NCBI GenBank assembly: GCA_964512925.1
Contig: CAZEKH010000001.1
Span: forward strand, 39,445-103,444
Length of the DNA: 64,000 nucleotides
DNA from: an uncultured Candidatus Saccharibacteria bacterium
GTDB taxonomy: Bacteria > Patescibacteriota > Doudnabacteria > UBA920
Reading direction: 5' to 3'
Part shown: positions 23,871-58,103 of the stretch, one piece after another
Position numbering within the stretch: position 1 is the stretch's first letter
How the letters are laid out: each line of letters opens with the position of its first letter
Position numbers and translations under genes: made by a program
The notes under the pieces: model-generated
The model's input: the letters and a program-made list of their open reading frames with translations, nothing else
The model's database searches: none
What the model was told of the DNA's origin: nothing

Positions 23871-24227
23871 ATGAAAAAAGTTATAAAAAAAGACACAAAC
23901 AGGATTGCTAAAGTAAATTCGCTGATAGAACACGCGCTTGGTCCGGTTTTACGCGAGTTTTTGGAAAACCACAAAGGCCTGGTTACCATCAGTAAAGTGG
24001 AAACCTCGCGAGATATGAAATGGACAAAAGTTTGGATTTCTATTTTTGGGGGCGATGACCAAAAAATCCTGGACTACCTGACAAGAAATATTTATGAGCT
24101 CCAAGGCGAACTTAATAAAAATTTTGCCACCAAAGTTATCCCGCGTTTACAATTTTTTCTGGACACTAGTCCCAGATATGCCGAGCATATAGACGAGGTG
24201 CTTAGGGAAATACACAAAGAAGCTTAG
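23871..24227 (+). CDS. rbfA: Ribosome-binding factor A
   Basis: KH-like RbfA pattern RIAKVNSLIEHALGPVLRE...ISKVETSRDMKWTKVWISIFG...IPRLQFFLD. The ORF-track start at 23844 is a TTG, and the in-frame ATG at 23871 is preferred. Confidence 0.85.
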   Translation: MKKVIKKDTNRIAKVNSLIEHALGPVLREFLENHKGLVTISKVETSRDMKWTKVWISIFGGDDQKILDYLTRNIYELQGELNKNFATKVIPRLQFFLDTSPRYAEHIDEVLREIHKEA

Positions 24228-24291
24228 TATTTTGTATAAAGTATTTAGTATAAAGCTTAATACATAATACCAACTACTTAATACTTTAAAG

Positions 24292-25257
24292 ATGAACGAC
24301 ATATTTTTACAAGCTCAAAGACTAATCAACAACTCTCAAAATATCCTCCTAACTATGCATGAACGGATGGATGGGGATGACGGAGGCAGTCTTTTGGCTA
24401 TGGCTATACAGCTGAAAAAACTTGGAAAAAACATCGCCTGCTCCATAAAAAAAGGCGTGCCACCCTCTTTGGCTTTTTTGCCGGAAAGCCGGCTGATTAT
24501 GGACGACATTGAAACTGACAGTTTTGATCTGCTCATAACTTTTGGTTGCTCCAGTTTAAAAAGAACTGGCAGTACCAACATCCAAAATCTAAAAACCACA
24601 AACCCAAAACTAAAGACTCTCAATATTGACCACCATCCTGACAACGAAAACTTTGGCGATGTCAATGTGGTTGACTCGGAGAAATCCTCAGTGGCGGAAC
24701 TGGTTTATGAACTGTTCAAATTCTACAAATGGCCTGTAGATAAAAATATCGCCACCTGCCTGTTAACCGGCATCATCACTGACACGGGGCGGTTTATGCA
24801 CTCAAACACCCAAGGTTCAACTTTAAAAACCGCCGCGGAACTGATGGAAAAAGGCGCGCTCACTAACCAAATCATCAAACATGCCTACAAAAACAAACAA
24901 ACCTCAGGTTTTAAAGCCTGGGCTAAAGCGCTCAAAAACGCTCGCTTTGATAAAAAAAATAAAATGGTAATTTCAGTTATTTCGGAAGAAGACCAAAAAG
25001 AACTGGGTAATCTGCCGGGCGGAGTTTTTGACGGTGTGGTTGAAACTTTAAACACCATACCTGAAGCAAAATTTTCGCTTTTCATCCGGCAAGACGGCGA
25101 AGTGATCAAAGGCAGCCTGAGAAGCGACACATATAAAAATACGGACGTACAAAAAATCGCCAAACTTTTTGGCGGCGGGGGGCACAAACTGGCTTCTGCC
25201 TTTACCATCCCTGGGAAACTTGTGAAAGACAAAACAGGGGAGTGGAAAATAGTTTAA
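24292..25257 (+). CDS. nrnA: DHH-family phosphoesterase (NrnA-like bifunctional oligoribonuclease/pAp phosphatase)
   Basis: MHERMDGDDGGSLLAMA (DHH motif I region), NIDHHPDNENFGDV (DHH), C-terminal DHHA1 GGGGHKLASAF. Confidence 0.8.
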   Translation: MNDIFLQAQRLINNSQNILLTMHERMDGDDGGSLLAMAIQLKKLGKNIACSIKKGVPPSLAFLPESRLIMDDIETDSFDLLITFGCSSLKRTGSTNIQNLKTTNPKLKTLNIDHHPDNENFGDVNVVDSEKSSVAELVYELFKFYKWPVDKNIATCLLTGIITDTGRFMHSNTQGSTLKTAAELMEKGALTNQIIKHAYKNKQTSGFKAWAKALKNARFDKKNKMVISVISEEDQKELGNLPGGVFDGVVETLNTIPEAKFSLFIRQDGEVIKGSLRSDTYKNTDVQKIAKLFGGGGHKLASAFTIPGKLVKDKTGEWKIV

Positions 25258-25357
25258 ATTCCTAATTTACCTAATTATTCTAATTGTTCTAAATAAAACC
25301 CAAACTTTAATTTAAAAATTAGAGATTAGAGATTATTTAGGGCACTTAAGTTAATTA

Positions 25358-25376
25358 GTCCGCCGGTTGGCGGAAG
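25358..25376. terminator. Family-C palindrome GTCCGCCGGTTGGCGGAAG between convergent genes
   Basis: Perfect GC-rich stem between the nrnA 3' end and the FMN reductase 3' end. Confidence 0.4.
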
Positions 25377-25377
25377 G

Positions 25378-25950
25378 TTAATTGGTGTTCCTAGCTTTAG
25401 ATAAGGCTTCTGCCCACCAGACTAGATTTTTCAAAAGGCCGTCGGCCTTTTTTTCGTAAGATTCGTCCGTCAAATTCCCAGTTTCGTCAAAAGCATTTTG
25501 TACTGGACCAAAAGGCACTGTCTCACGGATTGCCACCGCTCCAAAATTTTCTATCACTGGTCTTATCTGTTCCATAGCTCTCAGCCCGCCAAACTTCCCG
25601 TCAGAAACCCCGCACAGACCAAAAGGTTTTTGTGTAAATTCGTTGTACAGCCAATCAAGCGCGTTTTTTAAAACTCCGGTATAACCGTGGTTATATTCTG
25701 AAACTATTAAAACAAAAGCGTCTGCATTTTTTGCTATCTCGCTCCATTTCTGCACATTTTCGTAAGGGTAAATACCTTTCAGTCCCACCGGTACCATTGG
25801 TGAGTCAAAAAACGGCAAAGGCATTTCCACAAAATCAACAACCTGGGACATATGTCCCAGGGCTTTTATTTTATTTTCCAAATATTTGGCCGGATAAAGG
25901 CTCCTGCGTTCTTTTCTCACCGACCCGAGCACTACGGGAATATTGAGCAT
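25378..25950 (-). CDS. NAD(P)H-dependent FMN reductase / flavodoxin-like oxidoreductase
   Basis: 190 aa. MLNIPVVLGSVRKERRSLY N-terminus is typical of the NADPH-dependent FMN reductase family. Confidence 0.7.
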   Translation of the reverse strand: MLNIPVVLGSVRKERRSLYPAKYLENKIKALGHMSQVVDFVEMPLPFFDSPMVPVGLKGIYPYENVQKWSEIAKNADAFVLIVSEYNHGYTGVLKNALDWLYNEFTQKPFGLCGVSDGKFGGLRAMEQIRPVIENFGAVAIRETVPFGPVQNAFDETGNLTDESYEKKADGLLKNLVWWAEALSKARNTN

Positions 25951-25965
25951 ATAAAAAAATAGAAA

Positions 25966-26745
25966 TTATTCTTCCTCGGACTCGGATTGTAAAACAGCTT
26001 CCTCTAAATATTTTTTAGTGAGATTAAATTTCTTTATAAGTTTAATAAGCGTAGAAAAACCAATAAGGCCTTCAAGTTCGATATGTGGCTCCAATCTTGC
26101 GCCAAGCTGTTTTATGCTTGTATATAGAACGGTTGGAGCGCTTCTTTCTTTGGCTAATTCTCCTTTTGGGTGAACATTTTGCAAGTCAATAAGTTGTAAC
26201 CGTTTTAGTTCTTCTGTAATACCAGAAATAACAGCGATCAGGTATTCTACGTTCTGCCTAATATCGTCTGATTTGTCCTTTACTCTTTGTGCATAAAGGT
26301 TGTATTCCTGCAGGTATGCCAGAGCCTTTCCAGCAAGTCCAGAAAATTGTTCGCGCACACGTTCAACACTACCTACTTTTGCACCAGCTACGACACCACT
26401 TCGTTCCAAAGCTTCCACAAAACGAATGACGATCTCGTCTTGTCTGACTATTGCAACACCTTCGTTTTGTTGATCAAGCGTACTAATCTCAGCCTCAAGG
26501 GCTTCAAGTTCTAGCGAGATAGCTTTTTGTTCGTTTTTCGGCAGTCTTTCAAAAGCGCCCTTGAAAGACTGCTCTACTTTTGCGGACGGTAACTCTCGGT
26601 ATTGCCACCCAGCTCGTTTAACGAATAAAAGCTGTATTGATATTTCAGGAGTTTTTACTTCTCCTCTCTTTTCTTGAGGAGAGATACCACTTTCAAATTT
26701 TTCTTGCATAATTTTGTTATTAGGTAATAATGTTAAATATAGCAA
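25966..26745 (-). CDS. Hypothetical protein
   Basis: 259 aa, coiled-coil rich, moderately elevated GC. No family recognised. Confidence 0.35.
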   Translation of the reverse strand: MLYLTLLPNNKIMQEKFESGISPQEKRGEVKTPEISIQLLFVKRAGWQYRELPSAKVEQSFKGAFERLPKNEQKAISLELEALEAEISTLDQQNEGVAIVRQDEIVIRFVEALERSGVVAGAKVGSVERVREQFSGLAGKALAYLQEYNLYAQRVKDKSDDIRQNVEYLIAVISGITEELKRLQLIDLQNVHPKGELAKERSAPTVLYTSIKQLGARLEPHIELEGLIGFSTLIKLIKKFNLTKKYLEEAVLQSESEEE

Positions 26746-26870
26746 TTTTAGGATAAAAAATTTTCTTCCCTCAAAATGCGAAATTGTTAATTCTTTTTTA
26801 CCCCCAAAATTGAATACAAATTAGTCGCCGAGCGAGGCGAGACGAACCAAAACTCTTTGACTTTTCCTTT

Positions 26871-26956
26871 CTGGTGCCCGGGGAGGGACTCGAACCCTCA
26901 AGCCTTACGGCACACGCACCTCAAGCGTGCCTGTATACCAGTTCCAGCACCCGGGC
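26871..26956 (-). tRNA. tRNA-Leu (anticodon GAG)
   Basis: Reverse complement GCCCGGGTGCTGGAACTGGTATACAGGCACGCTTGAGGTGCGTG + long variable arm + GAGGGTTCGAGTCCCTCCCCGGGCACCA. Confidence 0.85.
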
Positions 26957-27125
26957 AAATCTAAAACGACTTGCTAATTATATCTAATGCGCGTTTTATT
27001 TTCAAGCGCTTTGTACAGTACCTTGCTCTAAAACTCTCTCTCTGTTAAAATTTGGCTACACAAAAGGAGGAATAATTCGCAAATCTGCGGTGTTTCTCCT
27101 TTTACTTTCGCGAAAGTGAGATTAT

Positions 27126-27924
27126 ATGGATCAGTTTGAAGCAAGATCAAAGGTGATCGTGGCGCTTGATGTAGCTTCTGTTAGCGAAGCAATCAAGCTC
27201 GTGCAAATGTGGATGGTTCATGTGGGCGGATTCAAGGTGGGTCTTGAACTCATCTATAGTACCATCATGTCGCTCATTACGCTCACACCCAGTGTGGCGG
27301 AAAACCTGCTCAGCGAACTACGTAGGCTGTTTCACCTGCTCGGCAACAGCGAATTTTTGGACGTCAAGCTCGGCGATATCGGCAATACTGTAGGTGGCGC
27401 GTCAAACGCCATCTGCCGGCTATACCCGGCAATGTTCAACGTCCACGTTTCGGCCGGCTCGCCCGCTCAGGGCAGCGCGTCAAAGCATCGACACAATGAC
27501 GAAAACATTCAACTTACAACGGAAACCCCTACTTCTGGGGGTCACATTGCTCACAAGCCTTGGGGAAAGTGAGCTTGTTGAACTGGGTTTGAAAAACCAG
27601 GAAGACACAGAGCCCAGGCGTCTTGAGATCGTTGTACGATGGGCAAAGTTTGCACAGCAGAACGGCTGCGACGGCGTGATTGCGTCTCCTCTTGAAGTTG
27701 TCGCTATCCGCCAAGCCTGCGGGCCAGACTTCTTGATATTTACGCCCGGCGTTAGGCTACCTGGCTCACAAATCCATGACCAGAAAAATGTTGCGACCCC
27801 CGGGCAAGCAATTCTATGGGGAGCAAGCGGAGTTGTGGTTGGCCGGGACATCACCGGCGCCAAAGACCCGGTCGCGGCAGCAAAGCTGGTCGTTCAAAAT
27901 ATTCTGGAAATACACGGAAGGTAA
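27126..27924 (+). pseudogene. pyrF: Orotidine-5'-phosphate decarboxylase split by an apparent frameshift near 27450-27470
   Basis: Frame A (27126-27572) gives KVIVALDV...DVKLGDIGNTV...NVHVSAGS. Frame B (27394-27924) continues PLRAARQSI...LLLGVTLLTS...LIFTPGVR...VVVGRDIT. Both are needed for a complete OMP decarboxylase. Local GC about 55%. Confidence 0.7.
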
Positions 27925-27926
27925 AA

Positions 27927-28628
27927 ATGCAAGTCCCATCAGGAAGAATTTTCACCGCTGATGATTTGATCATCTTGCGGGCAATGGTGTCGATTGGGTT
28001 CGTTCAACACAGAGAACAACCATTCACGCTCAAATCTGGTATCCAGTCTAACGTCTACGTCTTCGGAAGGGAAGAGATGACCGACAATCCCGTCATGGAG
28101 GTGATGGTGGGGGAAAAGATTGGCAGGCTCATCAGTCAGGTGGCAGTTCCTGAAGATCGAGAGATCTGTTTGATCGGTATTCCAACCGCCGGCACGCCGT
28201 TCGCCCAGGCAACAGCCATGGCCTGCTGTAACAAACTCTTCGTGAATGACAGGCCAATCGTTCACCGCCAGATGAAAGAGGTTACAAAACAGCACGGTGC
28301 ACACCCCGGATGGATTGTTGGTCGCCCGCGTGAAGACCAGAGCTATTGGCTGGTAGACAATGTCGCCACCAACGGCGCATCCAAACCAGAGGCTCGGGAA
28401 AAAATGCGCGCTGACCACTACCCGGATCCGGCCGGAGTAATTATCTGGATTGACCGCCAGCAAGGGGCAGTCGAACTTCTCAAGCGTGAAGGATTTGATC
28501 GAGTTTTGGTTGCATATAACCTGCTCGACATCACCTACGCGTTCGGGGAAATGCAGCTGTGGCCAAAAACGGCCGTCGACGCCGTGCAAAAAGAAATCGA
28601 AGATCACTCGTTTTTACCAAACGCGTGA
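27927..28628 (+). CDS. pyrE: Orotate phosphoribosyltransferase-like type I PRTase
   Basis: FTLKSGIQSNVYVF, LIGIPTAGTPFAQATA and the PRPP-binding loop YWLVDNVATNGASK. GGAAGG RBS, start 2 nt after the pyrF stop. The track ORF starts earlier at 27816, inside pyrF. Confidence 0.6.
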   Translation: MQVPSGRIFTADDLIILRAMVSIGFVQHREQPFTLKSGIQSNVYVFGREEMTDNPVMEVMVGEKIGRLISQVAVPEDREICLIGIPTAGTPFAQATAMACCNKLFVNDRPIVHRQMKEVTKQHGAHPGWIVGRPREDQSYWLVDNVATNGASKPEAREKMRADHYPDPAGVIIWIDRQQGAVELLKREGFDRVLVAYNLLDITYAFGEMQLWPKTAVDAVQKEIEDHSFLPNA

Positions 28629-28644
28629 CCCAATGCCAGAGAAA

Positions 28645-28687
28645 AGCGCGGGACCGCTCATAAACGGACCCGCGCTGAATTTTTTTG
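28645..28687 (+). terminator. GC-rich rho-independent terminator after pyrE
   Basis: AGCGCGGGACCG-CTCATAAA-CGGACCCGCGCT followed by GAATTTTTTT. Confidence 0.65.
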
Positions 28688-28713
28688 ATATAATGTTTAG
28701 GCAACAAGATTCC

Positions 28714-28743
28714 CTCCGCCTCCACCAGTTGGCGGATGGCGGA
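28714..28743. repeat. Family-C related palindrome CTCCGCCTCCACCAGTTGGCGGATGGCGGA
   Basis: Overlapping inverted repeats built on CCGCC...GGCGG. Confidence 0.35.
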
Positions 28744-28812
28744 TTAAATGTAATAAAAAATACTACAAATATTCACCCCTCCCCATTCGGCGAGCTCAGG
28801 GCAGGCTCTAAC

Positions 28813-28832
28813 CCTCCCCCTCAAGGGGAGGG
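28813..28832. repeat. Family-A palindrome CCCTCCCCCTCAAGGGGAGGG (near-identical to the copy at 7970)
   Basis: Perfect hairpin, not adjacent to a start codon. Confidence 0.45.
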
Positions 28833-28879
28833 AAAATATAAGGAATGACAGATAAAATTTTACAAATAACTCACCCCAT

Positions 28880-28903
28880 CCCTCTCTTTGAAAAAGAGAG
28901 GGG
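28880..28903 (+). promoter_or_regulatory. Family-A hairpin CCCTCTCTTTGAAAAAGAGAGGG in the leader of the RNHCP gene
   Basis: The 3' arm GAGAGGGGG ends 7 nt before the ATG at 28910. Confidence 0.5.
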
Positions 28904-28909
28904 GTTAAT

Positions 28910-29221
28910 ATGACATTCACTAAAAAAACTGAAAATTTCACTTGTAAACACTGCGGACACAAAGTAAAAGGCAACGGCTTTACTAACCATTGTCCAAAAT
29001 GTTTGTATTCCCGCCACGTGGATGTTTGGCCCGGGGATAGGAAAGAAGAATGTGGGGGACTGATGGAGCCTGTGGGGATGGAGCTAAAAAACGAAAAATA
29101 TATTTTAACTCACAGGTGCCTGGTTTGCGGCAAAGAAACCCACTGCAAAGCCAGCAACAATGACAGCATTGACGCCCTGACAAAGCTCTCAGAGAAGCTT
29201 GTCAAAAAAACATTTTTTTGA
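28910..29221 (+). CDS. RNHCP-domain zinc-ribbon protein
   Basis: FTCKHCGHKV...GFTNHCPKCLYSRHVD...CLVCGKETHC. The RNHCP motif is present as TNHCP. Confidence 0.55.
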   Translation: MTFTKKTENFTCKHCGHKVKGNGFTNHCPKCLYSRHVDVWPGDRKEECGGLMEPVGMELKNEKYILTHRCLVCGKETHCKASNNDSIDALTKLSEKLVKKTFF

Positions 29222-29282
29222 TATATTATGCATTAGTCCCTATATAAATTCGTGTGAATAAATCACGAAGAATACTTCATAA

Positions 29283-29339
29283 GGGCGATTAGCTCAGCTG
29301 GTTAGAGCGTCCCGATGCACATCGGGAAGGCCAAAGGTT
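29283..29339 (+). pseudogene. 5' tRNA fragment: first 27 nt identical to tRNA-Val, Cys-type anticodon arm (GCA), truncated in the T-stem
   Basis: GGGCGATTAGCTCAGCTGGTTAGAGCG-TCCCGATGCACATCGGGA-AGGCCAAAGGTT, then TATATATG (no T-loop or acceptor 3' strand). Confidence 0.5.
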
Positions 29340-29344
29340 TATAT

Positions 29345-29617
29345 ATGTTTTACGTATATATATTACAAAGCTTAAAAAATAACCGCTATTATATCGGATC
29401 AACTAATAATGCAGAAAGGAGATTAGCTGAACACAACGCTGGAATAAACATTTCTACAAAACCATACAGACCGTGGAAGATAGTTTTTTGTCAGTCTTTC
29501 GAAAGTAAAGATACAGCCCATAAAGCTGAATTAAAGTTAAAAAAATATAAAAGCAAATTAATTTTAGAACAAGTAATTAGGGATAAATATATAAGGGCGA
29601 TTAGCTCAGCTGGTTAG
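29345..29617 (+). CDS. GIY-YIG nuclease family protein (YhbQ/UPF0213-like)
   Basis: MFYVYILQSLKNNRYYIGSTNNAERRLAEHNAG is a canonical GIY-YIG core. AAAGG RBS. The 3' end with its stop codon lies inside the first 25 nt of tRNA-Val. The track ORF starts at 29315, within the tRNA fragment. Confidence 0.75.
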   Translation: MFYVYILQSLKNNRYYIGSTNNAERRLAEHNAGINISTKPYRPWKIVFCQSFESKDTAHKAELKLKKYKSKLILEQVIRDKYIRAISSAG

Positions 29618-29671
29618 AGCGACTCGTTTACACCGAGTAGGCCAAAGGTTCGAATCCTTTATCGCCCACCA
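29595..29671 (+). tRNA. tRNA-Val (anticodon TAC)
   Basis: GGGCGATTAGCTCAGCTGGTTAGAGCGACTCGTTTACACCGAGTAGGCCAAAGGTTCGAATCCTTTATCGCCCACCA. Confidence 0.85.
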
Positions 29672-29718
29672 CGCTTAGCGTGGTGAATGGTACGCTCAGC
29701 GTACCCACCATATACCAC
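29669..29718 (+). repeat. Conserved tRNA 3' trailer with two hairpins (CACCACGC-TTA-GCGTGGTG; GGTACGC-TCA-GCGTACC)
   Basis: A near-identical approximately 50-nt copy sits in opposite orientation 3' of tRNA-Ile at 40105-40154. The first hairpin incorporates the tRNA ACCA end. Confidence 0.6.
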
Positions 29719-29828
29719 TCGATGACTCTGGTATATGGCACAGCCAATAAAAGTAGAAAGTGGTAAAGTTATCAAGTTTTTCCTTTCAACATTACGAACT
29801 TGATAAACTTTAAACTAAAATGTTATGC

Positions 29829-29903
29829 GCCTCGGTAGCTCAGTGGTAGAGCAGACGCCTGAAGAGCGTCGTGTCGTCAGTTCGATTCTGACCCGAGGCA
29901 CCA
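29829..29903 (+). tRNA. tRNA-Phe (anticodon GAA)
   Basis: GCCTCGGTAGCTCAGTGGTAGAGCAGACGCCTGAAGAGCGTCGTGTCGTCAGTTCGATTCTGACCCGAGGCACCA. Confidence 0.85.
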
Positions 29904-29946
29904 GACATATTGAATATTTTATAGTTTTTGATAAACTATAAAATAC

Positions 29947-30020
29947 GCGGCTATGGTTCAATGGTAGAACAATACCTTGCCAAGGTATGGACAGGGGTTC
30001 GATTCCCCTTAGCCGCTCCA
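29947..30020 (+). tRNA. tRNA-Gly (anticodon GCC)
   Basis: GCGGCTATGGTTCAATGGTAGAACAATACCTTGCCAAGGTATGGACAGGGGTTCGATTCCCCTTAGCCGCTCCA. Confidence 0.85.
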
Positions 30021-30355
30021 AAGAAAAATGCTTCACCCCTATGGTGGAGCTTTTTTCTTTGGTAAGGATATAGGAGAACCGTAAGTTCAACCACGCCCAC
30101 AATAGCCTATAAAAAACAACTACAAGTTATAAATAATGGGTCATGTCCCCATTGTCCCACCTGGTGGATAGTTTTGTTTCTAATCCCACTAGTAAATATT
30201 GTAGTTGCGGTAATGGTCTGGATGGCTTTGGCAGAAAGAATGCACAAACCTTCCTGGTTAGGAATTTTGATCATAATTCCGATCATAAACATAGCCATAC
30301 CAGGTTACCTGGCTTTTTCTGAACAAACAACCACACCTATAAATTAAAGTCATAT

Positions 30356-30380
30356 AAAACCCCTATTTTATAGGGGTTTT
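30356..30380 (+). terminator. Perfect hairpin terminator AAAACCCCTAT-TTTA-ATAGGGGTTTT
   Basis: Follows a possible small membrane-protein ORF (about 30178-30351) not in the ORF track. Confidence 0.55.
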
Positions 30381-30710
30381 ATATTGTATTACAGAAAAAA
30401 CTGCATTTGACACCTATTTTTATTGGCTTTTTTTATGCTGTTTTTTTTCTAGCTTAAATAAAAGACTTTTTTAATCATTTTTTAAGCTGTTATTTTGCCG
30501 GAAAAAAGCTTTTCTCTCATATATAAAGCAAAAAGAGTCATTTTAGTCTTGATTTTTTACCTCAAAATAGGGTATAATATCTTTACAGTGCTGTGAAAGC
30601 GCTTTTTTATTTGCCTTTGCAAAGCACTGGACTTTCGCATCTAGCGAAACGATTGCGTTCTTAATCGAACGGTCAGCAATCGTTCTTTAATACCTATATC
30701 AGAAAGGAGT

Positions 30711-31451
30711 TTGATTCTAAGAATGAAAGCTCTTTTTGCCATCAGGTCTGTCCTGGCTAAAATTGATTTAGTCAGCGCAATTGCCCTGCTGATAGTTGTT
30801 CCGACCATTTACCCGGAACTGGCTTTCGCAGCTGAATTGTCAAAGACCGCTCAGGCTGAAACCGCCATAATTTTTGAAATCAAAAACCCCTCAGTTCTTT
30901 TACAAAAAAAGCCAACATCAAATTCCCCGATAGAACAGATTGCGGAAACTGTTGAACTTGCAAGCATTGAAGATATACAAAATTCAGATCCGTTAGTTGT
31001 AAAACTAACCGATTATTTAAACAAACATAATTCCCCGCTTGCAGAATACGCGCCGGAAATCGTCAAACAACCCCAATGGCAGAGATCTCTAGCTATTTCC
31101 TGGGTTGAGAGCAATTTCGGCAAACGTTGTTATACCAACAACTGTAGCGGCATCGGCGTAGCTCCCGGTCATCCTTTATGGAGATCTTACGCGACTAAAT
31201 TGGACTGGTTTAAAGATATGTGCCAGCTGATGGAAAAACCGATGTACAAAGTAAAATACACCACCTTTGAACAAATGCGCGGCATTTATGTTTACCCTGG
31301 AAGCAGCTCTTGGGTAAACGGAGCAAAGAAGAAGTATGCTGAGCTGATGGAAATAACTACTCAGGCTGAACAAGAAAAGCTTGCGGCTGTTGAAGTTAAA
31401 ACCCACAACGACAATCTGCACACCTTTCCGGAGCTGGCTATAGCCAGATAA
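30711..31451 (+). CDS. Hypothetical secreted protein (signal peptide, Cys-containing C-terminal domain)
   Basis: N-terminal hydrophobic signal-like segment LAKIDLVSAIALLIVVPTIYPELAFA. No confident family. True start may be the internal ATG (MKALFAI). Confidence 0.45.
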   Translation: MILRMKALFAIRSVLAKIDLVSAIALLIVVPTIYPELAFAAELSKTAQAETAIIFEIKNPSVLLQKKPTSNSPIEQIAETVELASIEDIQNSDPLVVKLTDYLNKHNSPLAEYAPEIVKQPQWQRSLAISWVESNFGKRCYTNNCSGIGVAPGHPLWRSYATKLDWFKDMCQLMEKPMYKVKYTTFEQMRGIYVYPGSSSWVNGAKKKYAELMEITTQAEQEKLAAVEVKTHNDNLHTFPELAIAR

Positions 31452-31457
31452 AACTTT

Positions 31458-31481
31458 AAACCCCCGCCAAAGCGGGGGTTT
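31458..31481 (+). terminator. Terminator AAACCCCCGCC-AA-AGCGGGGGTTT
   Basis: Perfect 10-bp GC stem right after the stop codon. Confidence 0.6.
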
Positions 31482-31526
31482 AAAGTTGCCAAACACCGAA
31501 ATTTTGTTTAAAATTATATGGTTATT

Positions 31527-31601
31527 GGCGCGATGGTGAAGCAGTAACACTGCGGTCTGCAAAACCGCCACGCGTGGGTGCAAATCCCACTCGCGCCTCC
31601 A
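31527..31601 (+). tRNA. tRNA-Cys (anticodon GCA)
   Basis: GGCGCGATGGTGAAGCAGTAACACTGCGGTCTGCAAAACCGCCACGCGTGGGTGCAAATCCCACTCGCGCCTCCA. Discriminator U73. Confidence 0.85.
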
Positions 31602-31628
31602 ATAAATAAGAGTCTCAACGAGGTTTAA

Positions 31629-31732
31629 GGTCTGTCATCCCTTCGGGAGATCCCCCGTAAGGGGGACAAAACCGCCACGCGTGGGTGCCATCCCTCCGGG
31701 AGATGTAAACACAAATCCCACTCGCGCCTCCA
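31629..31732 (+). pseudogene. Partial tRNA-Cys 3' duplicate interrupted by two family-B-related hairpin insertions
   Basis: GGTCTG [TCATCCCTTCGGGAGATCCCCCGTAAGGGGGAC] AAAACCGCCACGCGTGGGTGC [CATCCCTCCGGGAGATGTAAACAC] AAATCCCACTCGCGCCTCCA. Outside the brackets it is identical to nt 33-75 of the intact tRNA-Cys. Confidence 0.55.
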
Positions 31733-31807
31733 CTGCTTCGTCCGCCTAGGGCGGACTACGCAGTGCAAGCAAAAAAATCTTTAACATTATAAAAACATTA
31801 CATACCT

Positions 31808-31894
31808 GCCCGGGTGGCGGAACTGGCATACGCTACTGACTTAAGATCAGTCGCCCTTACGGGATTGAGGGTTCAACTCCCTCCCCGGGCACCA
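31808..31894 (+). tRNA. tRNA-Leu (anticodon TAA)
   Basis: GCCCGGGTGGCGGAACTGGCATACGCTACTGACTTAAGATCAGT + long variable arm + GAGGGTTCAACTCCCTCCCCGGGCACCA. Confidence 0.85.
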
Positions 31895-32164
31895 TTTAGT
31901 TATCAACATTTGACAGGGAAATTATTGGGTGGTAAATTATTTTTACTGATTAAATTTTTGAATTGAAACAAAGTCACAGATTTTCAATTTCTTACAATTC
32001 TAAAAAGTCAACCCAATGGCTTAGTTTGTTGTAAACGGATTCAGATTTGAATTACGTTTTTTTTATTACCTAAAGCCTTGACAAAAATATAAAAAAATAG
32101 TATAGTATGCGGTTACAACTTTTTTAAGCATATTACTTTAATTCTTCAACTTTTGTTGTAAACT

Positions 32165-54356: not shown

Positions 54357-55700
54357 ATGACAAACCAGCAACTGTGGCAAGCAATTTTGGGAAGCCTGGA
54401 AATTTCCTTAAGCAAAGCAAATTTTAATACCTGGTTTAAAAATACTTCAATTATTGAAAAATTGAGCGATACGATAGTAATAGGCGTGCCAAGCACCTTT
54501 AACAGGGATTGGATAGCTGCCAAATACCACGCTGAAATGCTGAAAAGCTTAAAAAGCATTGCCCCGGAAATAAAAGAGATAAAATATCAATTAAATTCCC
54601 AAACCGCCAGAATCCAAAACACGCCGCAAAAAACAGCTGATGCGAACTCTTTACAAAAAAGGCCTTTAGAACAGCAGATTTTTTTCAACCTTAACCCCAA
54701 ATACACGTTTGAGACTTTCATTTTGGGGAAAAACAGCGAATTGGCTTATGCCGCCAGCCAAGCTGTGGCAAAAAATCCAGGCGGGCAATACAATCCGCTT
54801 TTCATTTATGGGGGAGTGGGTTTGGGCAAAACCCATTTGATGCACGCGGTTGGTCATAGCCTTTTAAGCTTGAAGCCGAATGCTAAGATTATATATGTAA
54901 CCTCGGAAAAATTTACCAACGACTACATCAATTCCATCGGGCAGAAAAAAATTGAGGATTTTAAAAAAAATTATCGCAGCGCAGACTGTTTAATGGTAGA
55001 CGATATTCAGTTTTTGGCTGGTAAAGAAGGTACCCAGGAAGAATTTTTTCACACCTTTAACGAGCTGAGGGATAACGGCAAACAAATTATCATCACCTCT
55101 GACAGACCTCCAAAAGAAATTCCCGCCATTGAGGAGCGGTTGGTTTCGCGTTTTGAGTGGGGAATGCTGGCTGATATTCAAGCTCCCGACTTGGAGACAA
55201 GGATGGCCATCCTAAGAATGAAAATGCAAAAACGCAACATCTCAATTTCAGAAGATGTCCTTTTTTACATAGCGGAAAACGTTCAAAACAATGTCAGGGA
55301 ACTGGAAGGCGCTTTAAACCGCCTGGCGGTCTATCAACAAATGGAAAACCGAGGGCTGATTTTAGAGCAAGCAAAAAGCATCTTGGCTAGCGTTATTGGG
55401 GCAAAGAAAAAAATCACCTCGCCCAAAAGAATAGCTGAAATTGTCGCTGATTTTTATAACATCACAACCGAAGACCTGATAAAACAATCCAGAAAAAAAG
55501 AATTTGTCAAACCAAGACAAATTGCAATGTATCTGATCCGTAAAGAACTAGATAGTTCATTTCCTTCAATTGGGGCGTTTTTTGGGGGACGGGATCATAC
55601 AACAGTTATGCATGGGGTAGAAAAAATCACCGGTCAAATTAAAGCGAAGGTTGAGTTTAAACAAGAGGTGGATTTAATTGAGGATAAACTGTTTAACTAA
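54357..55700 (+). CDS. dnaA: Chromosomal replication initiator DnaA
   Basis: Walker A GGVGLGKTHLMHAVGH. Box VII. C-terminal DNA-binding helix. Confidence 0.95.
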   Translation: MTNQQLWQAILGSLEISLSKANFNTWFKNTSIIEKLSDTIVIGVPSTFNRDWIAAKYHAEMLKSLKSIAPEIKEIKYQLNSQTARIQNTPQKTADANSLQKRPLEQQIFFNLNPKYTFETFILGKNSELAYAASQAVAKNPGGQYNPLFIYGGVGLGKTHLMHAVGHSLLSLKPNAKIIYVTSEKFTNDYINSIGQKKIEDFKKNYRSADCLMVDDIQFLAGKEGTQEEFFHTFNELRDNGKQIIITSDRPPKEIPAIEERLVSRFEWGMLADIQAPDLETRMAILRMKMQKRNISISEDVLFYIAENVQNNVRELEGALNRLAVYQQMENRGLILEQAKSILASVIGAKKKITSPKRIAEIVADFYNITTEDLIKQSRKKEFVKPRQIAMYLIRKELDSSFPSIGAFFGGRDHTTVMHGVEKITGQIKAKVEFKQEVDLIEDKLFN

Positions 55701-55873
55701 TGTGTGTAACTCTTTTAAATTTCTTGGGCGGTGTTTATTGGAACGGATAAAAAAATCTTTTCCTTTTTTAATCCACCAAAAAAATATTTGTTTTTATTTC
55801 ATCGCCCAATAAAAATCAGGTTAAAAAATCTTTTCCACTTATCAACAATACTTATTATTATTAATTAATATTT

Positions 55874-56974
55874 ATGCATATAATCTGTACACAAGAAAAT
55901 TTAAAACTCGGATTATTAGCAGTAGGAAAAATAACTACACTAAGTAACACACTGCCGGTGCTGGGAACAGTTTTATTAAAAGCCGAAAATGGAATGCTCC
56001 AACTTTCTGCGACAAATCTTGAAATTGCCGTTCAAACCCAAGTGCGGTGTAAGGTGGAAGAGGTCGGAGCTTTTTCCGTTAACTGTAAAACTTTTACGGA
56101 TTTGGTTAATAATTTTCCAAATAAAAATATTTCTTTAAAACTTAAAGATTCGGCTGTTGAGGTAGATAGTGAAAATTATCATACAAAAATAAAAACCTTT
56201 TCCGCTGAGGAATTCCCCTTGATTCCACCGACGGAAAATTTAAAAACAGTAAACGTTAAGGCTCAAGAGTTTAAAAAAGCGGCGGGAAAAGTTGTTTTTT
56301 CCGCGTCAACAAACCAAACCCAGCCAGAAATTTCCGGTATATTGTTTGGTTTTCGCCAAAACCAATTAAAACTTGCTGCCACAGACCGCTATCGTCTGGC
56401 AGAGAAAAAAATCTTTATTTCGGAAGAAGTAACTCAGCCGGGCGAGGTGATTGTGCCGGCAAAAGCGGTTTTAGAGGCGGTTAGGATAGCTTCTGCTTTT
56501 GATGGGGATATGAGTGTTGGTTGGAGTTTGGGTCAGGCGGTTTTTGTCATTGGGGGTACGACAATTTTCAGCCGGCTGGTTGACGGGCAATACCCGCCTT
56601 ACGAGCAGATCATCCCCGCGAGTTTTCAAGCTGAGGCGGTTGTGAAAAAACAAGACTTGGTGGGCGCGCTTAAAGCGGTTGGGGTTTTTAGTCAAAATAA
56701 CAGTAGTATGGTTTTGGATTACAATAACGAGAGCCAAAAATTTAACTTGTCCAGCGAGGCTGGGGATTTGGGTACTGGCAGTGTGGAGTTGGAGGCGGAA
56801 ATTAGCGGCGGGTCTGGCAGTTTGGTGGTTAACTTTCACTACCTTTTGGATGCTTTACAAAATATGGATTCGGACAAAATCAAGTTTCGTTTTAACGACG
56901 ATTCTTCTGCGATTTTAGTGGTTCCTATAGAAGAAAAGGACTACCTATATTTAGTGATGCCTATAAAAACATAG
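55874..56974 (+). CDS. dnaN: DNA polymerase III beta sliding clamp
   Basis: 366 aa, three-domain clamp pattern, position after dnaA. Confidence 0.9.
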   Translation: MHIICTQENLKLGLLAVGKITTLSNTLPVLGTVLLKAENGMLQLSATNLEIAVQTQVRCKVEEVGAFSVNCKTFTDLVNNFPNKNISLKLKDSAVEVDSENYHTKIKTFSAEEFPLIPPTENLKTVNVKAQEFKKAAGKVVFSASTNQTQPEISGILFGFRQNQLKLAATDRYRLAEKKIFISEEVTQPGEVIVPAKAVLEAVRIASAFDGDMSVGWSLGQAVFVIGGTTIFSRLVDGQYPPYEQIIPASFQAEAVVKKQDLVGALKAVGVFSQNNSSMVLDYNNESQKFNLSSEAGDLGTGSVELEAEISGGSGSLVVNFHYLLDALQNMDSDKIKFRFNDDSSAILVVPIEEKDYLYLVMPIKT

Positions 56975-57017
56975 TTTGGAGGTGTGTATTCAATTTACTA
57001 AAAAAGAAAATTTACAT

Positions 57018-58103
57018 ATGAAAGTAAAAAATCTAACCATCAAAAACTTCCGGAATTATCCGGAATTAAATATTGAAATAAGTCACGATATGATTGTTTT
57101 AAGCGGTCCAAATGCCGTGGGAAAAACCAATCTTTTGGAATCGGTTTATTTCGCTTCTTTGTTTAAATCTTTCCGCGATGATAATGAGTTTATTTTTTTA
57201 AAAAATACTGATAGCGCTGAAATAAAAGTTGTGGTGGAAAAAGCTGGGAGCCAAAATGTTTTGGAAATTTATTTGGCAAAAAAAGATAAAATCTTAGCTA
57301 ATTTTTTCATTGACGGGGTGAGAAAAAAACGCAAAGAAGCCCAGGGTTTTTTGCGTGTTGTGATATTTGATCCGACTGATGTGGATATGTTCACAAAGAA
57401 TCCGGAAGCCAGAAGAAAATATTTAAATATGGTTTTGTCGCAAAAAGACCCGGAGTATTTGGATATTTTAAGCGCTTATAAAAAAATTGTTTACCATAAA
57501 ACTAGGTTGTTAAGCGATCTTAAGCATGGAATGTCGTCTGCTTCGGATTTGTCAGATTGGAACGAGCAGTTGGCGGAATGGGGAAAAAAGATAATATTTG
57601 TCAGGAAAAAATTTATTGATTTTTTAAATCGTGATTTGTCGGATATCTACACTTCAATCTCCGGTTTTCATCGGCCTGTGGAAGTTGTTTATGAAACCTT
57701 GAACGGGCAAACTGAAGAGGAAATAAAAGAGTCTTTTTTAGCCAAGTTAAAATTATATGAGAAAAAAGAAAAACTAAGCGGTTCTTGTCTGGTTGGTCCG
57801 CATCGGGATGATTTTTTCTTGAAGAGTGAGGGTTTGTTTTTACCCCCATTTTCTTCCCGCGGCGAGCTAAGAAGCCAGGTTTTGGCGTTAAAAATAATGG
57901 AGCTTGAATATTTAAGCCGGGATGGAGAAAAGCCCATACTTTTGTTGGACGACGTGTTGTCCGAGCTGGACGAAAGCCGCAGGAATTTTTTGCTTAAATA
58001 CCTGCAGGGCAGGTTTCAGACTTTTATAACCACGACCCACCCGCTTGAAATGCCTGCTCAGCACATAACGTTAAGCCCAGCCCCTGAAGAAATAAAAATA
58101 TAA
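57018..58103 (+). CDS. recF: DNA replication/repair protein RecF
   Basis: MKVKNLTIKNFRNY...GPNAVGKTNLLESVYF. ATG at 57018 preferred over the TTG at 56976 that abuts the dnaN stop. Confidence 0.9.
   Translation: MKVKNLTIKNFRNYPELNIEISHDMIVLSGPNAVGKTNLLESVYFASLFKSFRDDNEFIFLKNTDSAEIKVVVEKAGSQNVLEIYLAKKDKILANFFIDGVRKKRKEAQGFLRVVIFDPTDVDMFTKNPEARRKYLNMVLSQKDPEYLDILSAYKKIVYHKTRLLSDLKHGMSSASDLSDWNEQLAEWGKKIIFVRKKFIDFLNRDLSDIYTSISGFHRPVEVVYETLNGQTEEEIKESFLAKLKLYEKKEKLSGSCLVGPHRDDFFLKSEGLFLPPFSSRGELRSQVLALKIMELEYLSRDGEKPILLLDDVLSELDESRRNFLLKYLQGRFQTFITTTHPLEMPAQHITLSPAPEEIKI

Follow-up and report, generated by a model that had tools for sequence, protein, structure and literature searches.

Orotidine 5′-monophosphate (OMP) decarboxylase, PyrF, is represented by the curated families PF00215 and TIGR01740, and the solved structures of orotate phosphoribosyltransferase (OPRT) include the OPRT domain of human UMPS (2wns) and the enzymes of S. 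cerevisiae (2ps1), E. coli (1oro) and S. typhimurium (1lh0). We analysed a pyrF-pyrE gene pair that lies beside a tRNA-Leu(GAG) gene in a 64,000-nucleotide stretch of DNA from an uncultured bacterium of the Doudnabacteria, within the Candidate Phyla Radiation (CPR); this whole stretch (contig CAZEKH010000001.1 of assembly GCA_964512925.1, positions 39,445 to 103,444) is called the window below. The window PyrF shares with described OMP decarboxylases the curated hidden Markov model (HMM) scores and the catalytic motifs, but its reading frame is broken and it stays below the cut-off of the PRK00230 model. The pyrE product, which we call type X, shares its fold with the four OPRTs named above, whereas its identity to solved OPRTs is just 16-23%. 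In the literature, no paper was found that pairs 'Candidate Phyla Radiation' with 'orotate phosphoribosyltransferase', and the publications that mention both Doudnabacteria and pyrimidine hold general statements only. We consider it probable that the pair is a resident, inherited locus of this Doudnabacteria genome, reduced in gene content and with a broken pyrF, and that its high GC content is a property of the clade and not the sign of a fresh gain.

To place the pair in its genomic context, we compared its neighbourhood with those of related contigs, which are designated by L numbers. The gene order was IF2-RbfA-DHH-FMN_red(-)-tRNA-Leu(GAG)(-)-pyrF-pyrE-[pyrD(-)-pyrC]-RNHCP-tRNA-Val/Phe/Gly, with the bracketed genes present in some relatives and (-) marking the minus strand. 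The full neighbourhood recurs in L052, L054/55 and L056, whose translation initiation factor IF-2 is 71-73% identical to that of the window; L057 shares it as well, with an IF-2 that is 72% identical by contig match, and the short contigs L059/60 and L062 cover its core. The tRNA-Leu(GAG) gene, which the sequence-only reading of this DNA had correctly set on one side of the pair, stands in the same orientation 5′ of pyrF in L052, L054, L056, L057, L059 and L062. The interval from this tRNA to the RNHCP gene, hereafter the slot, is occupied in L052, L054, L056, L057, L059, L061 and L062, so that the absence from relatives expected of a genomic island was not observed.

The degree of divergence of the pair matched that of its neighbours. 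The window IF-2 was at most 78% identical to any database protein, and its named hits were nearly all from Doudnabacteria or Patescibacteria, with one weak hit labelled Candidatus Limnocylindria; on this protein and its neighbours we base the assignment to Doudnabacteria. Between the window and the relatives, identities were 71-73% for IF2, 52-77% for RbfA, 58-63% for DHH and 57-65% for FMN_red, and the flanking proteins of the relatives were 57-80% identical among themselves. PyrF (of a long type, here type A) and PyrE (type X) were 58-65% and 64-65% identical to their counterparts, inside the 46-77% range of the flanking orthologues. The sequence-only reading had proposed a laterally acquired module and suggested a search for best hits outside CPR; the best matches of both proteins proved to be CPR, mainly Doudnabacteria, with a best non-self identity of 65%.

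The high GC content was likewise common to the relatives. In every one of them the slot genes lay 8-15 GC points above most flanks, with 60-61 against 48-53% in L052 and L054, 52-55 against 36-46% in L056, 56-60 against 35-48% for most flanking genes in L057, and 56-60 against 43-52% in L059 and L061-L063. Because the relatives share the excess in this slot, it cannot be read as the sign of a newly arrived insert. Together with the shared slot and the CPR best hits, it argues that the locus was inherited and not recently acquired, against the idea of a module gained from outside CPR; best hits to close relatives in the same synteny were also what had been named in advance as the sign of an inherited locus. 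In its atypical GC and codon use, its adjacency to a tRNA gene and a gene content that varies between relatives, the slot resembles tRNA-associated genomic islands. It differs from them in that it has no integrase, duplicated tRNA 3′ end or att repeats, that in relatives keeping the neighbourhood it holds genes of the same pathway, and that the tRNA adjacency is ancestral. The gene lists contained no integrase or transposase between 25966 and 29221, and a search for att-like repeats of the tRNA-Leu 3′ end flanking the segment returned merely short chance repeats. Taken alone, a sharp GC island beside a tRNA gene in a CPR genome is therefore no evidence of recent transfer; the present one appears inherited and clade-wide.

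We then examined what the compositional contrast consists of. The window as a whole is 39.9% GC, and the segment 27126-28700 is 52.4% against 39.6% elsewhere, which ranks it as the GC-richest 1.6-kb stretch; the contrast given by the sequence-only reading, 55% against 36%, is therefore real with its figures overstated. Sliding GC over 1575 bp had a mean of 39.9%, a standard deviation (SD) of 3.4 and a maximum of 52.8% (27251-28825), and the runner-up stretch reached 47.0%. The excess coincides with the pyrF and pyrE coding sequences (52.7% GC); the 5′ leader at 26957-27125 is 35.5% GC. All three codon positions were elevated, and GC at third codon positions (GC3) was 0.56-0.58 in the two genes, the highest in the window, where the 65 open reading frames (ORFs) had a mean of 0.41 and an SD of 0.067. 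Using the codon usage of the other ORFs of the window, we partitioned the excess into an amino-acid and a synonymous part. The amino-acid share made up about half, with an expected GC of 46.9% that exceeds every other gene against a background mean of 40.1%, and the synonymous codon share made up about the other half, with observed minus expected GC of +5.6 to +6.3 points against a background SD of 2.3 and maximum of 4.0. The segment thus has the atypical base composition and codon use of a genomic island, as the proposed check of windowed GC and codon usage confirmed. The codon-level excess of type-X pyrE amounted to z of about 2.6 in the window and exceeded z of 2 in 7 of 15 lineages (the window, L003, L010, L012, L013, L014 and L052); it was not present in L007, L009, L016, L017, L019 and L020. 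Where synonymous sites must be saturated, persistence of the excess is not explained by a single old transfer, and repeated replacement, GC-biased gene conversion and selection are all candidate causes.

Across relatives, the slot turned out to be mosaic in gene content. Between orthologous flanks, pyrF comes as type A or as types B/B′, with 25-30% identity to A; for pyrE there are types X, Y, Y′ and Z, no two of which exceed 27% identity where any is detectable; pyrC is of a dimer type or a multi type (22% identical); and pyrD occurs in two types (25% identical). In all, two deeply separated types of pyrF, four of pyrE and two of pyrC occupy the slots of the relatives. Such a mosaic makes past exchange of pyr cassettes within CPR likely, and of the earlier proposal of lateral transfer it is this older, within-CPR form that finds some support, whereas the recent or non-CPR form does not. 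In L057 (6503-11441), a canonical pyrD-pyrF-pyrE-prs cluster of host-like GC (42-48%) adjoins a second set, composed of a GC-rich long pyrF and a third OPRT-like type at 56-60% GC. In L063 (6659-9073) and L064 (5280-7694), the pyrF leader, a type-A pyrF and a type-X pyrE lie beside an rve transposase and a fragmented uvrB with no tRNA-Leu, and this cassette is 56% GC against 43% in its flanks, which suggests that the whole leader-pyrF-pyrE cassette can move or be rearranged.

The number of genes in the slot varied as well. Genes pyrD and pyrC lie between pyrE and RNHCP in L052, L056 and L061, and pyrD-pyrC-pyrF-pyrE clusters occur in the more distant CPR loci L003 and L018; the slot holds pyrF and pyrE alone in the window, L054/L062 and L059. 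A tblastn search of the 64 kb revealed no homologue of pyrD, pyrC, prs, purB/E/C or ribonucleotide reductase, a Pfam scan of 40 ORFs likewise revealed none of these, and tblastn detected no pyrD or pyrC remnant in 28629-28909 or elsewhere in the window. The two approaches agree with the earlier statement that no other pyrimidine-biosynthesis gene is present in the window. Stepwise reduction of a pyrimidine cluster is the simplest reading, with the direction of pyrD and pyrC loss inferred from their distribution. The states found at this one locus, from pyrF-pyrE-pyrD-pyrC through pyrF-pyrE alone to this pair with its pyrF broken, form a series of pathway reduction and gene replacement, and the series bears on the dependence of these organisms on orotate or pyrimidines from a host.

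The last of these states is due to a lesion in pyrF. The segment had been said to encode OMP decarboxylase, which is right for the identity of the gene and wrong for its integrity, as the coding sequence is spread over two frames by a 2-bp deletion, relative to homologues, at about 27466/27467. Frame 0 yields a 148-amino-acid ORF (27126-27572) that ends in a premature TGA (27570-27572) and is native over its first 113 or so residues, and the C-terminal part continues in frame +1 to the TAA at 27922-27924, leaving no uninterrupted frame for the whole barrel. Protein alignment with 16 homologues placed the frame switch between VHVSAGSPA and LRAARQ, and DNA alignment showed CCCGC--TCAGG in the window against CCTGCCCTCAAGG in intact relatives. 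A recoded stop codon behind the short ORF was considered and rejected, the problem being the change of frame and not the stop.

When the frame was corrected, the resulting 265-amino-acid PyrF scored 127.1 bits with PF00215 (cut-off 27) and 125.9 bits with TIGR01740 (cut-off 92.3), and 177.7 against the PRK00230 equivalog cut-off of 193. The catalytic Asp/Lys network (D15, K37, D79, K81 and D84) was conserved in the alignment with the 16 homologues, and the characteristic motifs were present: the Asp of ALD, the Lys of FKVG, D-x-K-x-x-D as DVKLGDI, TPGVR and VVGR. The protein falls in a long (265-274 amino acids), Doudnabacteria-centred subgroup that, unlike standard PyrF, carries an insertion of about 20-30 residues after FKVG. 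Since motifs and HMM scores are retained in the frame-corrected protein, the lesion would be single and recent, or an error. In the deposited genome, the 148-residue fragment is annotated as protein P0137, and the 273,987-bp contig that encodes it also encodes the pyrE product. The Logan assembly of one run (SRR14271332) yielded contig L001, which was 100% identical to window positions 26617-29308, deletion included; L002, from a second run, was identical over 27816-29308, a span that leaves out the deletion site. JGI metagenome contigs scanned at the frameshift site with 0-4 extra bases, as an intact allele of the same population would have, gave no match. The frameshift was seen in the window only, and all intact relatives carry two more bases at the site. 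As sequenced, the orotate-to-UMP route is therefore interrupted at its last step.

We take the frameshift to be biological, so that the locus would be what is left of a pyrimidine cluster that was reduced and, very recently, inactivated, or else an inactive allele carried by the sampled population. Alternatively, the frameshift could be an artefact of sequencing or assembly, or represent a minority allele, and the organism would then possess an intact two-gene module for salvaging orotate from the host or community. That pyrF is otherwise undegraded, with all its motifs and 58-65% full-length identity to intact homologues, speaks for this alternative, as do the intact pyrF-pyrE pairs without pyrD and pyrC in the slots of L054/55, L059/60 and L062 and the start of L002 at 27816, which misses the deletion site. 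The same 2-bp deletion is present, however, both in the deposited genome and in the Logan assembly of SRR14271332, although the two may share the same reads, and the site (CCCGC|TCAGG) is not a long homopolymer; on balance we regard an artefact as possible but doubtful. If ribosomes made a programmed +1 shift at CCC-G (27462-27465), ...VSAGSP would be read on into LRAARQ... and a PyrF of full length minus one residue would result, and a tRNA-Pro(CGG) gene is present in the window. This we judge highly improbable, as none of the homologues is frameshifted, intact relatives are all two bases longer there, no rare or stop codon follows the site (GCT is the commonest background Ala codon), and no stimulatory element was identified.

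Alternatives to inheritance of the locus as a whole were weighed in the same way. According to the sequence-only reading, the pair was acquired recently from outside CPR and integrated beside tRNA-Leu; the segment does have the highest GC and GC3 of the window and adjoins a tRNA gene, and outside its own clade type-A PyrF reaches about 43-44% identity with Bacillota sequences. Against the CPR best hits, the same slot, tRNA and GC excess in relatives, the failure to find an integrase or att repeat, and a type-X family that appears restricted to CPR where members are credibly named, such an origin has very little to commend it. The abrupt GC step at the borders of the coding sequences might also reflect mis-assembly or contamination, in which a GC-rich foreign fragment was joined into an AT-rich contig. 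Because the independent Logan contig from a single run matches the window at 100% identity through both junctions, a chimeric assembly is unlikely, and with the tRNA-Leu/pyrF and pyrE/RNHCP junctions recurring in at least six other assemblies from different samples it is scarcely credible. Recurrent lateral exchange within CPR deserves more attention. It would make the tRNA-flanked slot a hot spot at which entire pyr cassettes or individual pyr genes give way to non-orthologous counterparts of GC-richer CPR, with the pairing of type-A pyrF and type-X pyrE and the GC excess as the footprint of replacement or of GC-biased gene conversion accompanying frequent recombination. The main points on which it departs from an inherited, reduced locus are how the GC excess arose and how old it is. 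The mosaic of pyrF, pyrE, pyrC and pyrD types between orthologous flanks is in its favour, together with the leader conserved 5′ of both pyrF types, the transposase-associated leader, pyrF(A) and pyrE(X) of L063/L064 in another context, the extra canonical cluster at host GC beside the GC-rich pair of L057, and a type-X codon-level GC excess that is strong in some CPR lineages and missing in others. On the other hand, no close donor has been sampled (best non-self identity 65%), PyrF and PyrE resemble their counterparts in syntenic relatives to the same degree as the flanking proteins do, as co-divergence predicts, the CPR donors of 60-65% GC needed for L012, L013 and L018 were not identified, and differential loss of tandem paralogues from an L057-like state could also yield the mosaic. 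We see in such exchange a serious contender that falls somewhat short of an even chance.

The inherited, reduced locus that we favour would thus have descended with its neighbourhood, in which the slot from tRNA-Leu(GAG) to RNHCP and tRNA-Val-Phe-Gly holds pyr genes in the relatives; pyrD and pyrC, present in some of these slots, would have gone from that of the window, and the clade-wide high GC would reflect in part the amino-acid composition of the enzymes and in part codon choice. Several observations weigh against this reading. The genes pyrB/C/D and prs may lie outside the visible 64 kb. The atypicality at synonymous sites is real, and plain vertical inheritance fails to account for a codon-level excess across such divergence. 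L065 and L066, the closest relatives by IF-2 (77%), are contigs without the RbfA-to-RNHCP block after IF-2: in L065 (7798-13735) and L066 (7447-9782) a tRNA_bind gene follows IF-2, and L065 continues with OrnDC-DUF378-S1. In these two relatives the RbfA-DHH-FMN reductase-pyr-RNHCP block is missing or has moved elsewhere, and the neighbourhood is therefore not universally stable. A type-A pyrF is paired with a type-X pyrE elsewhere only in L063/L064, outside the tRNA-flanked slot, so a replacement of either gene may have occurred in the lineage of the window. Finally, apart from its deletion pyrF shows no decay, with intact catalytic motifs and no further stops.

The second gene of the pair was identified through fold, motifs and context. 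As had been noted, stop and start codons are tightly coupled, with 2 nucleotides between the pyrF stop (TAA, 27922-27924) and the pyrE ATG at 27927. The pyrE product matched no Pfam family at E <= 0.1, PF00156 included, and with 51.9 bits it reached about half of the TIGR00336 cut-off of 106.8, so that it is not recognized by this curated HMM. Its AlphaFold2 model had a mean confidence (pLDDT) of 93.4 and a predicted template-modelling score (pTM) of 0.89. In a Foldseek search against PDB with this model, the top 47 matches were OPRT or UMP synthase, bar one chain deposited merely as 'phosphoribosyltransferase', with E = 1e-14 to 1e-8 and template-modelling (TM) scores of 0.6-0.75; the product has the OPRT (type I phosphoribosyltransferase) fold. 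A profile of the type-X family likewise matched OPRT and UMP synthase chains only, bar that same entry, and the profile alignment covered LKSG..S.Y, R.E.K..G, the phosphoribosyl pyrophosphate (PRPP) loop and DR.QG. Residues K121, G124, D176-R177-Q-Q-G180, L35, S37 and Y44, invariant in the family, align to the motifs of 2wns and 3qw4, and the flexible-loop Lys (R-K-E-x-K-x-x-G), DR.QG and LKSG..S.Y are all present; their role in orotate and PRPP binding we presume from established OPRT structures.

Type X departs from known OPRTs in its PRPP loop, VDNVATNG, where N145 is invariant in 27 family members. An Asn (VDNVAT) replaces the second acidic residue of the OPRT loop, V(D/E)DV, and the loop lacks the two adjacent acidic residues that the aligned OPRTs carry (ED in 2wns, DD in 3qw4). 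Additional conserved N- and C-terminal helices and a WP/EEI motif further distinguish the family, which is small (about 106 clusters at 50% identity, E <= 1e-30, among 1.84 billion representatives). Named members are nearly all CPR, from Doudna-, Uhr-, Andersen-, Portnoy-, Zambryski-, Moran-, Komeili-, Adler- and Nealsonbacteria and Parcubacteria, and one contig carries a Gammaproteobacteria label. The type-X gene lies directly 3′ of a pyrF in most loci with readable upstream DNA, and near pyrD and pyrC in several. Because of its fold, motifs and genomic context, we regard the type-X product as the putative working OPRT of these lineages. The earlier description as an OPRT-like phosphoribosyltransferase thus holds, for a divergent form that is sub-threshold on curated HMMs. 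Members are named 'hypothetical protein' in NCBI records and OPRT in JGI; with scores under the cut-off and such names, PyrE could therefore be missed in these lineages by pathway reconstructions that use Pfam or NCBIfam thresholds. The locus is accordingly an ordinary pathway locus and no new kind of system, with a CPR-specific OPRT variant that curated models miss.

The pair would form a single transcription unit of promoter, conserved leader hairpin, pyrF, closely coupled pyrE and intrinsic terminator, in which type-X PyrE would turn orotate and PRPP into OMP and PyrF would decarboxylate OMP to UMP. Coordinates of these features are collected in Table 1. The promoter-like site aligns with CTTGAT..-N-TATAAT of the relatives; a promoter scan of the region did not call it. 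The pyrF leader is common to eight Doudnabacteria loci, window positions 27023-27116 among them, and its hairpin is kept 5′ of pyrF in seven relatives, whichever pyrF type follows. The hairpin comprises 14 bp, with the 5′ arm AAAGGAGG and a pyrimidine run as the 3′ arm, followed by U-rich sequence. RNAalifold found modest covariation, 2 of the 14 pairs being changed on both sides. A search for further copies of the hairpin with the pattern AAAGGAGG-N14-40-YTYCYTTTT was too strict to be informative, as it missed the copy in the window itself. An Rfam search of 24000-32000 (E <= 1) returned tRNAs and sub-threshold noise, and no PyrR site or riboswitch in the pyrF leader. Hairpin and U-tract make a candidate attenuator, with a possible regulatory role. 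The small palindrome near the ribosome-binding region has a TTTCACGTGAAA-type counterpart beside the ribosome-binding site in the relatives.

Table 1. Features of the pyrF-pyrE locus in the window, with the leader copies found in related contigs
Feature	Position	Strand	Basis or remark
tRNA-Leu(GAG), conserved left border of the pyr slot	26872..26956	-	ARAGORN; Rfam tRNA 48.4 bits
Promoter-like site TTGCTC-17 nt-TAAAAT, putatively for pyrF-pyrE	27023..27051	+	read from sequence
Leader hairpin AAAAGGAGG...CTCCTTTT, then U-rich tract; candidate attenuator	27062..27103	+	fold of leader
Small palindrome/hairpin CTTTCGCGAAAG just 5′ of pyrF ribosome-binding region	27105..27116	+	alignments
pyrF (OMP decarboxylase, long type A)	27126..27924	+	split by 2-bp deletion; ORF list, three-frame translation, alignments
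pyrE-like, divergent CPR-type OPRT (type X), 233 amino acids	27927..28628	+	fold, motifs, position beside pyrF
Intrinsic terminator GCGCGGGACCG-loop-CGGACCCGCGC, then TGAA + T7	28647..28687	+	fold
Leader copies	L052 8290-8366, L054 9929-10003, L056 9925-10003, L057 9931-10003		alignments
Leader copies	L061 12-91, L062 175-248, L063 7924-8003		alignments

The GC-rich terminator that the sequence-only reading had placed at the other end of the pair was recovered as a 10-bp G+C-rich hairpin (28647-28676) followed by the T7 run, with -26 kcal/mol and z = -4.64; none of 200 shuffles was as stable. A simple terminator scan missed this hairpin. The spacer from the pyrE terminator to RNHCP (28700-28909) is about twice that of L054 and contains two more G+C-rich hairpin-forming repeats, CCCTCCCCCTCAAGGGGAGGG and CCCTCTCTTTGAAAAAGAGAGGG.

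A more far-reaching picture can be offered only tentatively, and we think it rather unlikely as a whole. The slot may be a long-lived recombination hot spot at which non-orthologous pyrF, pyrE, pyrC and pyrD are swapped among CPR downstream of a promoter and leader hairpin that are conserved. The cassette would be kept 10-15 GC points richer than the genome by GC-biased gene conversion or by selection, the hairpin and its U-tract would act as a pyrimidine-responsive attenuator not described before, and type X, with its VDNV loop, would serve CPR genomes as the functional OPRT overlooked by standard annotation.

Elsewhere in the window, 40 further ORFs were assigned by Pfam to housekeeping functions, with Ddl, Alr, a Mur ligase, a MurA-like protein, GyrA, TyrRS, PBP1, RuvABC, YidC and DnaA-DnaN-RecF among them. 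The dnaA-dnaN-recF genes lie at 54357-58103, so the pyr locus is at most about 27 kb away from the region of the probable replication origin. A 259-amino-acid ORF with no Pfam match (25966-26745, minus strand) separates the FMN reductase gene from tRNA-Leu(GAG) in the window; its position is empty in L052 and L054 and holds a 128-amino-acid ORF in L057. In L056, a LAGLIDADG-like ORF lies on the opposite side of tRNA-Leu. Downstream of the slot, the 5′ part of tRNA-Val(TAC) is repeated over 61 bp with 87% identity at 29279-29339, ahead of the intact tRNA-Val at 29595-29671, and both Logan contigs end at 29308, within this repeat. A low-GC GIY-YIG ORF of 100 amino acids (29315-29617) stands between the two tRNA-Val copies and overlaps the tRNA start, and the region 29279-29671 looks like a GIY-YIG cassette inserted at tRNA-Val with target duplication.

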